Positions 7,512-10,798 of a stretch of DNA of 47,047 nt are shown one piece after another. The translations under genes were made by a program, and so were the position numbers. How positions within the stretch are numbered: the first letter of the stretch is position 1; the number at the start of each line of letters is the position of its first letter. This DNA comes from a phage. Location of the stretch: sequence record OZ335955.1. The stretch is one strand, 5' to 3'. Under the pieces are notes generated by a model. The model had not been told where the DNA came from and made no database searches. It saw nothing but the letters and a program-made list of their open reading frames with translations.

Positions 7512-7898
7512 TTAAAAAATAATTAATGTAGGCTGCAATTCTTCTTCATACCAAGTCCAGCCAATACACCGCCCTTCCATGGCGTCAATGTAAGGCTTTA
7601 CCCAATCCAAAAATGCCTGAATCTCACCGCTATAGTTTTTGATATCGCTGCGACTGAAGATGTATTGCTCGTCGCTGTAGTCAAATTTTGGGCAACTATT
7701 AACTACGGATGGGTGATGGTAAAAGCTACAGTAGTTACCAATAGAATCCCAGCGCGGTAGTGTGAAAAATTCATGCTCAGGAAGCTTTACCGGCCTGTCG
7801 GCACCAGCAAACATATACTGGATTACATCCATCACCTCTTTCGGTACACCCCCCCCCTTAATCTGACACTTTAAAACCAACTCTGTGTACATTCCCAT
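7512..7898 (-). CDS. hypothetical protein (contains G9 homopolymer in coding strand)
   Basis: 128-aa ORF, first gene after the minus promoter at 7931..7959; run of nine C at 7849..7857 encodes KGGGV. Confidence 0.5.
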   Translation of the reverse strand: MGMYTELVLKCQIKGGGVPKEVMDVIQYMFAGADRPVKLPEHEFFTLPRWDSIGNYCSFYHHPSVVNSCPKFDYSDEQYIFSRSDIKNYSGEIQAFLDWVKPYIDAMEGRCIGWTWYEEELQPTLIIF

Positions 7899-7930: not shown

Positions 7931-7959
7931 ACTATACGCCACCGCTCAATCTACGTCAA
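7931..7959 (-). promoter_or_regulatory. sigma70-like promoter TTGACG-N17-TATAGT (conserved family)
   Basis: reverse strand reads TTGACGTAGATTGAGCGGTGGCGTATAGT followed by ATCTACATCA; divergent from an extended -10 (TGaTAGAAT, 7968..7976) on the plus strand. Confidence 0.55.
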
Positions 7960-8002
7960 CACCATTGTGATAGAATTAATCATTATTTGAACAGGAGGCA
8001 TA

Positions 8003-8281
8003 ATGAAACTATCGCAACGCGGCATGGAGACGCTTGGAATCACCGATGCCGTGGATATATCGCCTTACATCACCACTGACACAACGCAGAATCAGTTCGA
8101 CGCGCTGACAAGCCTTGCCACCGACATCGGCATTGACGTGTTCCGTAAATCAACACTTCTGAAGAAACACAACCTGCGCTGCTTCTCATGTGCTGTTGCG
8201 CATTTCATCGTGTGGGGTGAGAAGACTGACGACAAAGCTAAGCGCAAAACTGAAAAAGAGGTTTACTGGTATGGCTATTAG
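8003..8281 (+). CDS. lysozyme-like protein, C-terminal domain only (probable remnant)
   Basis: TQNQFDALTSLATDIGIDVFRKSTLLKKHNL...F..W matches the C-terminal half of P22 gp19 / T4 e-type lysozymes; N-terminal catalytic E/D/T region absent; strong RBS AGGAGG. Confidence 0.5.
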   Translation: MKLSQRGMETLGITDAVDISPYITTDTTQNQFDALTSLATDIGIDVFRKSTLLKKHNLRCFSCAVAHFIVWGEKTDDKAKRKTEKEVYWYGY

Positions 8282-8735
8282 CAAAAACATGAAGGCGTTT
8301 CTGGATATGCTGGCGTACAGCGAGGGCACGGATAACGGGCGACAGAAAACCAATAATCATGGTTATGATGTAATTGTTGGCGGCTCGCTATTTACTGACT
8401 ACTCAGACCACCCGAGAAAGCTGATTAGCCTGCCAAAGCTGGGTATCCAATCCACTGCCGCCGGACGCTATCAGGTGCTGGCTAAGTTTTATGACGCGTA
8501 CAAAAAGCAGTTGCGCCTGCCTGACTTCTCCCCCGCATCGCAGGACGCCATTGCAATGCAGCTAATCCGTGAATGCAAAGCAACCGCAGATATTGAGGCT
8601 GGTCGCATTGCCGATGCCATCCATAAATGCCGTTCCCGCTGGGCTTCGTTGCCGGGCGCTGGCTATGGTCAGCATGAGCAGAAACTGGATAAGCTGATTC
8701 AGGTATACAAGGCCGCTGGCGGAGGTGTGGCATGA
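8271..8735 (+). CDS. R: endolysin, lambda R-type
   Basis: ORF-track 8190..8735 starts at GTG; ATG at 8271; product MAISKNMKAFLDMLAYSEGTDNGRQKTNNHGYDVIVGG...WASLPGAGYGQ is near-colinear with lambda R. Confidence 0.85.
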   Translation: MAISKNMKAFLDMLAYSEGTDNGRQKTNNHGYDVIVGGSLFTDYSDHPRKLISLPKLGIQSTAAGRYQVLAKFYDAYKKQLRLPDFSPASQDAIAMQLIRECKATADIEAGRIADAIHKCRSRWASLPGAGYGQHEQKLDKLIQVYKAAGGGVA

Positions 8736-8971
8736 AAAAGCTAAGCAACTGGCTGCTCGGCGCGTGGATTTCGTTCTGCTCGCTGTTGCAGCTATGGCCT
8801 GATGCAATGATGCATGTATGGGTAATGATGCCGGATGACCTGAAATCAGCACTACCGCCAATCGTGGTTAAAGGGGTGAGCTATTCAATCATGCTGGTTG
8901 GTATTCTCACCAAAATGCACGGCATGAGGAAGGAAAACCGGAGGTTGCGCAATGATGTCGATTCTCGCTAA
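8732..8971 (+). CDS. holin candidate (two-TM membrane protein)
   Basis: 79 aa, two hydrophobic helices and charged C-terminus; ATGA overlap with endolysin stop; lies between endolysin and spanin. Confidence 0.45.
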   Translation: MKKLSNWLLGAWISFCSLLQLWPDAMMHVWVMMPDDLKSALPPIVVKGVSYSIMLVGILTKMHGMRKENRRLRNDVDSR

Positions 8972-9449
8972 ATACTGGCGACCGCTGGCAATTATTATAA
9001 TTGTTGCCGCTGGCGCGCTGTGGGCAGCAAATAAAGTATCAAGCTACGGCGAACAGCAATACGCCGCCGGGTATGCAAAAGCAGTCGCCGAACAGAAGGC
9101 CGCAGACGAACAAGAGGAGCAACGACGCAATGCAGAACTGCAAAAGATTCAGGCCGACGCACAGCAAAGGATTGACGCTGCGCGCAATGACGCTGTCAAT
9201 GCTGCTGCTAAGTCTGGCAGGTTGCAGCAACAGCTCGCAAATATCCGCAAGCAGCTCATCGGATATTCCACCGCTGAGTCCATTGGCAATCCAGCCGCAA
9301 AAACCGGAGTTTTGCTTGGAAACGTGCTCAGCAAATCTGTCGAAAGAAATCGACAACTGGCAGATTACGCTGACAGGGCAAGAGAAGCAGGATTAGCGTG
9401 TGAGGCACAGTACAATTCATTGAGGGCGGGGAATGCTAAGCAGAGATAA
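8952..9449 (+). CDS. i-spanin (Rz-like)
   Basis: N-terminal TM helix then Ala/Gln/Glu-rich coiled-coil periplasmic domain; GGAGG RBS. Confidence 0.7.
   Translation: MMSILAKYWRPLAIIIIVAAGALWAANKVSSYGEQQYAAGYAKAVAEQKAADEQEEQRRNAELQKIQADAQQRIDAARNDAVNAAAKSGRLQQQLANIRKQLIGYSTAESIGNPAAKTGVLLGNVLSKSVERNRQLADYADRAREAGLACEAQYNSLRAGNAKQR
9187..9396 (+). CDS. o-spanin (Rz1-like lipoprotein), embedded in +1 frame of the i-spanin gene
   Basis: ATG at 9187 inside ORF-track 9001..9396; MTLSMLLLSLAGC lipoprotein signal with lipobox, Pro-rich mature region. Confidence 0.7.
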   Translation: MTLSMLLLSLAGCSNSSQISASSSSDIPPLSPLAIQPQKPEFCLETCSANLSKEIDNWQITLTGQEKQD

Positions 9450-9581: not shown

Positions 9582-9606
9582 AAGCCCCGTAATGGGGCTT
9601 GTGTTT
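9582..9606. terminator. rho-independent terminator (bidirectional)
   Basis: aagcccc-gtaat-ggggctt hairpin flanked by A-run upstream and gtgttt downstream. Confidence 0.55.
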
Positions 9607-10309: not shown

Positions 10310-10798
10310 TTACTTTAATGCTCCGTGATTTTTATGGAAACAATATTTTTCCTCAGCTGCTTTTCTGCATTCTGCAGCCATTGACAAGTTTGAGAATCTG
10401 CCAAGCGCAATCTGCTTTCCGTTCACGGCAATCTTTGCATACCATTTCTTACTCTTGTTATCCCAACTAACTCCGACAACATTACTCGTGTTATCAGATC
10501 GCATAGAAAGATTCTTAGCGTTCTGCTTTCTGCTTACCAATCTGAGATTCTCAATCCTATTATCATCACGAATGTGGTTTATATGATCAATCTCCATCCC
10601 CTCTGGTATCTCACCATTGTGCATTTCCCAAATTATTCTATGCATCAGTCGCACTTTTCCAAAGCAATGAACCTGCATGTACCCATTACCTGCCATGCTT
10701 CCTGCCAGCCTCCCTATTTTCATGTTTCTGTTTGTTTTTATCTTCCAATATAGCAACCCATCACGGTATTCGAACACATCATTCCAATCCATCATCAC
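10310..10798 (-). CDS. HNH homing endonuclease (HNH + AP2-like domain)
   Basis: EIDHINHIRDDNRIENLRLVSRKQN HNH motif followed by VVGVSWDNKSKKWYAKI AP2-like region. Confidence 0.85.
   Translation of the reverse strand: MMMDWNDVFEYRDGLLYWKIKTNRNMKIGRLAGSMAGNGYMQVHCFGKVRLMHRIIWEMHNGEIPEGMEIDHINHIRDDNRIENLRLVSRKQNAKNLSMRSDNTSNVVGVSWDNKSKKWYAKIAVNGKQIALGRFSNLSMAAECRKAAEEKYCFHKNHGALK

Follow-up and report, generated by a model that had tools for sequence, protein, structure and literature searches.

A predicted non-catalytic lysozyme subdomain maintained at the head of the lysis operon of Skatevirus-like phages

Phage lysozymes of glycoside hydrolase family 24 (GH24), among them P22 gp19, the T4 gene e product and R21 of phage 21, are enzymes of 146–165 amino acids (aa) with a two-lobe fold and an inter-lobe active-site cleft that includes the β-sheet of the N-lobe. 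Separate non-catalytic polypeptides, encoded beside or within the gene of a catalytic endolysin and made together with it, are known as subunits of multimeric Gram-positive endolysins, such as PlyCB of PlyC and the stand-alone cell-wall-binding domains of CD27L, CTP1L and Lys170. T7 lysozyme, an amidase of unrelated fold that has kept its catalysis, moonlights as a regulator of T7 RNA polymerase. The muramidase domain of SpmX (PDB 6h9d) is a precedent for a lysozyme fold in a non-lytic role, although it keeps the whole two-lobe domain. In T4 lysozyme, the C-terminal subdomain is discontinuous (residues 1–12 and 75–164), and its autonomous folding has been shown experimentally (bioRxiv 10.1101/353649). 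Here we describe a natural gene that encodes matching pieces of the lysozyme fold. It was found in the phage sequence record OZ335955.1 (47,047 nucleotides (nt); 'the window' denotes this whole stretch), which is the genome of a Skatevirus-like siphophage. The 92-aa mini-lysozyme (hereafter 'mini') is encoded at 8003..8281 on the plus strand as the first, promoter-proximal gene of the lysis operon, in a region approximately 91% identical to that of Escherichia phages Bas77–79, Shigella phage DS8 and Salmonella phages VSt472, Skate and Vi II-E1.

The mini open reading frame (ORF) is a real gene, and its product is very likely a functional, non-catalytic, domesticated lysozyme subdomain, which, judging from sequence comparison, derives from the phage family's own GH24 endolysin and has been selectively maintained. 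The only Pfam family detected in mini was PF00959 (Phage_lysozyme; 38.4 bits against a cut-off of 22.3, E = 1.8e-9), the match of residues 19–74 covering positions 55–110 of the 125 in the profile, i.e. its C-terminal half. A profile search of the PDB likewise matched GH24 chains solely in their C-terminal halves. The mini C-lobe is 32–36% identical to solved GH24 enzymes, and PHROGs holds a dedicated family, phrog_10457. The nearest full-length relatives (43–52% C-lobe identity) are the lysozymes of Salmonella phage D10 (a Skatevirus), Klebsiella phage vB_Kpn_F14 (F14) and Aeromonas phage pIS4-A, which share with mini the genomic slot, promoter, Shine-Dalgarno sequence and first residues MKLSQRG; they differ in being complete enzymes of 145–146 aa with the holin gene directly next.

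Alignment with these lysozymes indicates how mini arose. The D10 enzyme begins with MKLSQRGKELIKSFEG, and the sister-phage lysozymes of full length have an N-terminus to which the first 11–18 residues of mini (MKLSQRG.E.L) show homology, the segment concerned being MKLSQRGKELI in D10 and F14. The lesion, as read from the alignments, is therefore an internal in-frame deletion of approximately 54 residues and not an N-terminal truncation, and the ORF is not a pure C-terminal fragment. The initial annotation, made from the sequence alone, had described mini as matching only the C-terminal half of lysozymes and lacking the N-terminal catalytic residues; the retained C-lobe and the missing catalytic residues were borne out, the restriction to the C-terminal half was not.

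The deleted segment (approximately residues 19–72 of the D10 enzyme) held the N-lobe, with its β-sheet and the catalytic Asp and Thr, and the catalytic Glu was probably lost as well. The deletion junction is ambiguous between mini residues 12 and 18, where 'DAV' (residues 15–17) has two possible counterparts, the catalytic 'EGL' and a 'DGV' close to D10 residue 68; under either alignment the catalytic triad is absent, and the residue that MAFFT places opposite the catalytic Glu differs among minis (D, N or E). Every mini carries a second deletion, of a 7-residue loop with the conserved G-L of the cleft motif W-x(4-8)-G-L-x-x-R-R, and a further cleft motif, [YF]-N-x-G, has become [TA]-x-I-G, with [YF]-N replaced by T/A-D/S/A. 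Unlike the GH24 lysozymes, mini is unable to form the inter-lobe active-site cleft, and we predict it to be catalytically dead. No coding remnant of an N-lobe was found elsewhere within the window. The deposited record of the Skate homologue (our locus L002, 1590..1868; AXC42973.1) bears the note 'has Ex5Dx8T motif; endolysin_glycosidase'. In the window mini, E9-x8-D18-x5-T24 matches the catalytic spacing on non-homologous residues and is absent from the minis of the RSU and L077 types; by these alignments, the E, D and T to which the Skate note refers are spaced in this way by chance.

Other shortened GH24 proteins were considered as convergent cases. A lambdoid prophage contig (L159, 3001..3297; protein P0087) encodes an independent N-lobe-deleted P22-type lysozyme of 98 aa between holin and Rz; as this prophage has no other endolysin, P0087 was rejected as a convergent mini and attributed to plain decay that mimics the architecture. 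P0068 (101 aa, with 'TADIGID') and P0170 (110 aa) are internally shortened GH24 proteins with uninformative contexts, and were likewise set aside.

The AlphaFold2 model of mini (predicted local distance difference test score, pLDDT, 95.7; predicted template modelling score, pTM, 0.88) comprises six helices, the N-terminal one at residues 5–11, and no strands, and the two-lobe fold with an N-lobe β-sheet was accordingly not found in it. The SpmX muramidase domain (6h9d) was among the Foldseek matches in the PDB. All best matches were GH24 endolysins, including AbLys1, the FAHEc1 endolysin, R21, P22 lysozyme and DLP12 RrrD, with template modelling scores normalised to the query (TMq) of 0.70–0.72 for alignments of the C-lobe only and 0.80 for one spanning both termini (7m5i, the whole FAHEc1 enzyme), which places the N-terminal helix of mini in the position of helix A. 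Normalised to the target (TMt), the scores were only 0.31–0.50. An independent BFVD model of the homologue from phage KFS-SE2 superposes on the mini model with a TM-score of 0.99. The composition of mini (helix A, the end of helix C and the C-lobe, with no N-lobe) matches that of the T4 lysozyme C-terminal subdomain; by this analogy, the deletion excised one structural subdomain cleanly. The engineered T4 fragment from the Marqusee laboratory, which combines residues 75–164 and 1–12 (bioRxiv 10.1101/353649), likewise has helix A joined to the C-lobe, but is a laboratory construct of marginal stability and no biological role, whereas mini is natural, old and selected, and has in addition invariant His and Cys residues and a C-terminal Y-x-Y-G-Y. 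The K-H-N-x2-C-x2-C motif that contains the former is found in all minis and in the full-length lysozymes of the same family (D10, F14, pIS4-A and L123–129), and is absent from P22 gp19 and other GH24 enzymes. Its His/Cys/Cys cluster aligns to T4 lysozyme positions 121, 125 and 128, of which R125 and E128 are the engineered zinc-site positions in PDB entries 3sb5 and 7dws, both among the fold matches. By analogy, a structural metal or a disulfide at H56/C60/C63 may stabilise the free-standing lobe.

At an identity of at least 80% and in full length, mini was detected by tblastn in approximately 140 phage records, and the gene measures 279 nt, with no stop and no frameshift, in 37 of the 37 close relatives compared at the DNA level. 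The ratio of non-synonymous to synonymous polymorphism (pN/pS) among close relatives is 0.14 for mini, 0.15 for the holin and 0.046 for the R-type endolysin encoded downstream; within mini, it is 0.40 for residues 1–18 and 0.10 for the C-lobe. Divergent minis of 85–98 aa, 36–58% identical, occur in Klebsiella phage RSU-F4K5, Flyfo siphovirus Tbat1_6 and metagenomic phage contigs. The ratio of non-synonymous to synonymous substitution rates (dN/dS) is 0.05–0.19 within each mini subclade (dS 0.25–2.2), with synonymous sites saturated between clades, and 26 residues are invariant across all divergent minis, including K55-H56-N57, C60, C63, W71, R81 and the C-terminal Y-x-Y-G-Y. Frame disruptions and variable length (37 loci) and a dN/dS near 1 (subclades), as would mark a pseudogene, were not found. 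In a tree based on C-lobe columns, the minis are monophyletic (87% bootstrap), with the types of downstream enzyme interleaved within the clade, and are weakly placed as sister to their own family's full-length lysozymes. This monophyly, together with the K-H-N-x2-C-x2-C motif shared with the family lysozymes, points to a single ancient deletion followed by long retention.

Comparison of the locus in related phages revealed either a full-length lysozyme or mini plus a variable enzyme. In D10 and F14, a 145–146-aa GH24 lysozyme occupies the mini slot and is directly followed by the holin gene, with no R-type gene and no second endolysin. DNA homology between D10 and the window (85%) extends through the upstream region to nt 8024 (codon 8; the first 22 nt of the gene), breaks there, and resumes exactly at the holin start at 8732, with the 146-aa lysozyme between; it follows that [mini + R] and [full-length lysozyme] interchange as a cassette. 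The gene behind mini is itself variable: an R-type transglycosylase in most loci, a GH108 enzyme with a PG_binding_3 domain in L040 and L074, and in L069 a signal-anchor-release (SAR)-type GH24 lysozyme with its own DUF7940 holin. Minis 91–92% identical to one another precede GH108 (L074) or R (L075 and L077), with the homology break at the mini 3' end, and minis 84% identical precede R (L068) or the SAR lysozyme (L069), with homology resuming only in the spanin gene. The downstream slot has thus been refilled at least twice with mini retained, and the modular exchange of the endolysin proposed in the initial annotation was confirmed. In all cases the mini stop overlaps or abuts the next start (by 4 to 23 nt in L040, L074, L075, L077 and L068).

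A further 36 loci, collected with the holin as anchor, comprise 32 with the full-length family lysozyme, three with mini and R, and one (L155) that gave no matches in the scanned range and was left unclassified. A foreign enzyme without mini was found neither among these 36 loci nor in the other cassettes sampled; every sampled cassette holds either the full-length family lysozyme, or mini and another enzyme. The phage collection contains 143 records with an R-type gene (at least 80% identity) and, as a separate count, 143 with mini, of which 140 are close and the others are RSU-F4K5 and two Tbat1_6 records. Divergence of mini is uncorrelated with that of R (Mantel r = -0.01) and of the holin (Mantel r = -0.17), and in 22 locus pairs minis at least 94% identical accompany holins of no more than 75% identity (57–75%). 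A specific complex of mini with R or the holin was rejected, there being no co-variation and the partners being interchangeable. Heavy mosaicism has been described in this phage group, for which the subfamilies 'Skatevirinae' and 'Roufvirinae' have been proposed (PMC11769527).

In the window, the lysis operon and its upstream region are laid out as follows.

7931..7959, minus strand: sigma-70-like promoter TTGACG-17-TATAGT for the leftward, divergently transcribed genes (consensus scan, 10/12 matches)
7968..7976, plus strand: extended -10 element TGaTAGAAT, putative lysis-operon promoter, invariant across all aligned lineages
7993..7998, plus strand: Shine-Dalgarno sequence AGGAGG of the mini gene, ending 4 nt before its ATG
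8003..8281, plus strand: mini-lysozyme gene, 92 aa (ATG-started ORF; C-terminal half of PF00959; phrog_10457)
8003..8056, plus strand: mini residues 1–18, N-terminal helix (helix A equivalent) and deletion junction
8057..8278, plus strand: mini residues 19–92, end of the inter-lobe helix and complete C-lobe, aligning to D10 residues 69–145
8168..8191, plus strand: H56-N57-x2-C60-x2-C63 motif (invariant alignment columns)
8256..8261, plus strand: Shine-Dalgarno sequence AAGAGG of the R-type endolysin, inside mini codons 85–87 and 9 nt before ATG 8271
8271..8735, plus strand: lambda R-type endolysin (lytic transglycosylase type), 154 aa, intact (phrog_90, endolysin)
8732..8971, plus strand: holin of the DUF7940 family, 79 aa (Pfam PF25612; phrog_13249, holin)
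8952..9449, plus strand: i-spanin (DUF2514, Rz-like; Pfam PF10721, E = 7e-30; phrog_312)
9130..9396, plus strand: embedded o-spanin in the +1 frame with lipobox LAGC (ORF 9001..9396 contains MLLLSLAGCSNSS)
9582..9600, both strands: bidirectional intrinsic terminator closing the lysis operon (terminator scan on both strands; Skate is annotated likewise there)

The mini stop codon (TAG, 8279–8281) overlaps by 11 nt the R-type endolysin gene, whose product is 66% identical to lambda R over its full length of 154 aa (65.6% against the lambda records), with the SEGTD motif of the catalytic Glu aligned; the overlap with a complete lambda R-like endolysin was thus correctly called in the initial annotation. 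The start of the o-spanin is uncertain, having been picked by analogy with the O-spanin annotated at the equivalent offset in the Skate record. As for the strong ribosome-binding site and promoter claimed for mini, the former stands. In an alignment of ten lineages, which spans full-length-lysozyme phages as well as the mini lineages that have diverged furthest, the GGAG core of the Shine-Dalgarno sequence is conserved and the CGTCAA block of the leftward promoter is invariant, as are columns T84 G85. T87 A88. A90 A91 T92 (TGnTAnAAT) of the extended -10 element. The latter has no good -35, and the consensus scan called no sigma-70 promoter on the plus strand; since the element is invariant in all aligned lineages, a rightward lysis-operon promoter at this position is plausible. 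Both the extended -10 element and the Shine-Dalgarno sequence are kept in all lineages regardless of the downstream architecture.

The divergent promoters, back to back at 7931..7976, are conserved across the whole phage group, even with differing flanking genes. Between the leftward genes and this region lies an ORF of 128 aa (7512..7898, minus strand; phrog_4334, no Pfam match), which is confined to the window, L007, L020 and Klebsiella phage RSU-F4K5. At this spot D10, Skate and most relatives do not have it, and it therefore looks like a mobile accessory gene. Approximately 0.9 kb downstream of the lysis operon, a homing-endonuclease-like ORF of 161 aa (10310..10798, minus strand) has an HNH_3 and a weak AP2 match; HNH genes stand near the cassette at other positions in relatives (VSt472, L040), and it is possible that they drive local recombination. 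Many relatives carry an insertion of approximately 140–190 bp at the holin/i-spanin junction with a small extra ORF (68 aa in VSt472; L001, 2553..2759); equivalents occur in KFS-SE2, IME207, 64795_sal3 and C1, and the window is without the insertion.

The R frame lies at +1 relative to mini and is open from 8190. An endolysin frame open for 80–170 nt before its ATG is seen in the window (8190..8270), L004 (2221..2733) and L161 (2098..2733), and accounts for the over-long gene annotations in some records, such as the 'endolysin' or 'lysozyme' genes of the RSU-F4K5 and Tbat1_6 records that overlap most of the mini gene. In the metagenome sequences P0029 and P0033, the mini frame shifts into the R frame around residues 54–71 and then shifts back, and in L072 (646-1374) the shift runs on as a 243-aa mini-R fusion. 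A programmed mini-R frameshift was considered and rejected, as neither a slippery sequence nor a +1 shift site was seen, the downstream gene of L040 lies in a different relative frame and the coverage of L072 is only 2.5x; these copies are probably sequencing errors or rare decay.

Several explanations other than a domesticated subdomain were weighed. The initial annotation offered two, a remnant or footprint of endolysin exchange and a repurposed non-catalytic domain, of which the second is favoured by the evidence of selection, fold and retention across enzyme swaps. A neutral leftover with no function of its own would agree with the real modular exchange at the locus, with the occurrence of internally deleted lysozymes as plain decay (P0087) and with the few frameshifted metagenome copies. 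Yet homologues of the same length, which the initial annotation had itself named, in combination with a distinct function, as grounds for refutation, are present in approximately 140 phage records, all 37 loci are intact at 279 nt with a pN/pS of 0.14, dN/dS is low in all subclades despite inter-clade synonymous saturation, and mini has persisted in forms as little as 36% identical and in front of three types of enzyme, outlasting at least two endolysin replacements, even though useless DNA is normally purged fast from phage genomes; the selection data largely refute the neutral remnant, which we regard as highly improbable. We give equally little credence to a second active endolysin, i.e. 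a working 92-aa muramidase, as the labels 'endolysin', 'lysozyme' and 'muraminidase' in GenBank, RefSeq and PHROGs would have it, and as the Skate note and the fitting E/D/T spacing in the window could be taken to support. The direct homologue 'lysin2' of Escherichia phage swi2 (orf 51, 'muraminidase'; 92 aa, 89% identical, same position), treated as active by Sui et al. 2021 (PMC8185280), in whose paper the missing N-lobe and catalytic residues are not noted, was expressed as a soluble 62 kDa trigger-factor fusion and reportedly lowered colony counts of E. coli BL21 by approximately 1 log from both inside and outside the cell (0.01 < P < 0.05). However, the assay used a fusion with a 52-kDa tag, included no peptidoglycan assay and gave an equal effect with or without ethylenediaminetetraacetic acid (EDTA) and from either side of the cell, and it is weak evidence for catalysis by a protein that has lost the entire N-lobe with the catalytic Asp and Thr, as well as the cleft motifs, and in whose relatives neither the E/D/T spacing nor the Glu position is conserved.

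Another possible explanation is that translation of mini feeds ribosomes to the endolysin start, carries its Shine-Dalgarno sequence and stabilises the mRNA, the protein itself being merely harmless. Mini invariably opens the operon, with a stop that always overlaps or adjoins the start codon behind it, the R Shine-Dalgarno sequence lies within mini codons 85–87 and the swap breakpoints fall at the mini 3' end. Such an expression leader, however, predicts an open frame with dN/dS near 1, as opposed to the observed 0.05–0.19, and predicts neither 26 invariant residues across proteins only 36% identical nor a confidently folded domain; moreover, the D10/F14 endolysin is driven directly by the same promoter and Shine-Dalgarno sequence, so that a 279-nt leader is dispensable in principle, and we consider this explanation unlikely. 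Nor does it seem likely that the free lobe regulates lysis timing through cytoplasmic binding to a lysis protein of the phage, be it the DUF7940 holin or a different one, in the manner of a soluble antiholin like T4 RIII. Mini is a small, soluble, helical protein, with no transmembrane domain or signal peptide, co-expressed with the holin, and no architecture, the SAR-GH24 variant included, lacks a holin of the DUF7940 family. Against this, near-identical minis go with holins 57–75% identical and mini and holin divergence are uncorrelated, the D10 holin is 97% identical to that of the window although the C-lobe of the D10 lysozyme is only 43% identical to mini, the isoelectric point (pI) varies from 5.4 to 9.1 across minis, which implies no conserved electrostatic interface, and neither a holin-like hydrophobic segment nor a specific partnership with the holin, as would mark an antiholin, was found.

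Overall, we favour a domesticated, non-catalytic lysozyme subdomain acting as an accessory lysis protein, which on balance appears probable. Mini would be synthesised alongside the endolysin, late and in the cytoplasm, as a non-catalytic pseudo-lysozyme serving as an accessory lysis factor. The presence of three unrelated enzymes, holins 57–75% identical and different spanins, without co-variation, makes a constant host component the more likely partner than a phage protein. As the ancestral ligand of the C-lobe is murein glycan or peptide, we tentatively propose a wall-binding helper: once the holin opens the membrane, mini might be released with the endolysin, bind the murein sacculus or a muropeptide via the remains of the ancestral glycan-binding face, and assist or tune the breakdown of the wall. 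This specific mechanism should be regarded as no more than one candidate. Rather doubtful is the further idea that the family lysis system has a second, indispensable activity in the free C-lobe, originally built into the lysozyme, which might be a wall- or precursor-binding, or a lysis-timing, module. A cationic, membrane-active helper was rejected as a general property, given the range of pI. Mini also differs from subunits of the PlyCB type, which have dedicated wall-binding folds and one specific catalytic partner, whereas mini is half a catalytic fold from phages of Gram-negative hosts; no recognised wall-binding fold and no fixed partner, as expected of a two-component endolysin, were found, the partner being R-type, GH108 or SAR-GH24.

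Several points weigh against an accessory role. The degraded cleft motifs argue against canonical peptidoglycan binding by mini, and its mechanism rests on inference. D10-type phages manage with a single full-length lysozyme, and a free lobe is therefore not universally required. The constant association of foreign enzymes with mini is based on few independent swap events, and could come about simply if the mini gene provides a homology arm for recombination. The five full-length lysozymes in the AlphaFold2 input alignment bias the model toward the lysozyme fold, and a few metagenome copies have frameshifted 3' parts, as mentioned above.

The gene family is already in databases, under the misleading name 'endolysin' (RefSeq; PHROGs phrog_10457), and the Skate genome announcement names the transglycosylase as the sole endolysin (PMC6606912). 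A literature search returned nothing specific on truncated or inactive lysozymes in lysis cassettes, and no description of mini as an N-lobe-deleted pseudoenzyme or of the variable enzyme downstream; a paper on phage vB_Sal-S-S10 deals with an unrelated Jerseyvirus and is not relevant. The nature of mini, its age, its selection and the fixed boundary that it forms at an endolysin swap site thus appear undescribed. More than 140 phage genomes, as well as RefSeq and PHROGs, label mini 'endolysin' though the catalytic half is absent, and statements about 'two endolysins' and enzybiotic work built on mini are therefore probably wrong.

Mini represents a clean natural pseudoenzyme, in which selection has preserved a single autonomous subdomain of a textbook fold, and, as the left edge of a hot-swappable endolysin slot, it documents the rebuilding of a lysis cassette. 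Since phages Bas77–80 grow on E. coli K-12, a lysis role of mini is directly testable. If mini does have its own role in lysis, the holin-endolysin-spanin scheme misses a player in a large group of phages of Salmonella, E. coli and Klebsiella. If it is a split-off second activity of the ancestral enzyme, the catalytic endolysin would become a plug-in part, with transglycosylase, GH108 enzyme and SAR lysozyme swappable behind mini. Mini would then stand for a fifth functional class of lysis proteins in Gram-negative phages, beside holin, endolysin, spanin and antiholin, in the form of a natural pseudoenzyme derived from half a lysozyme.

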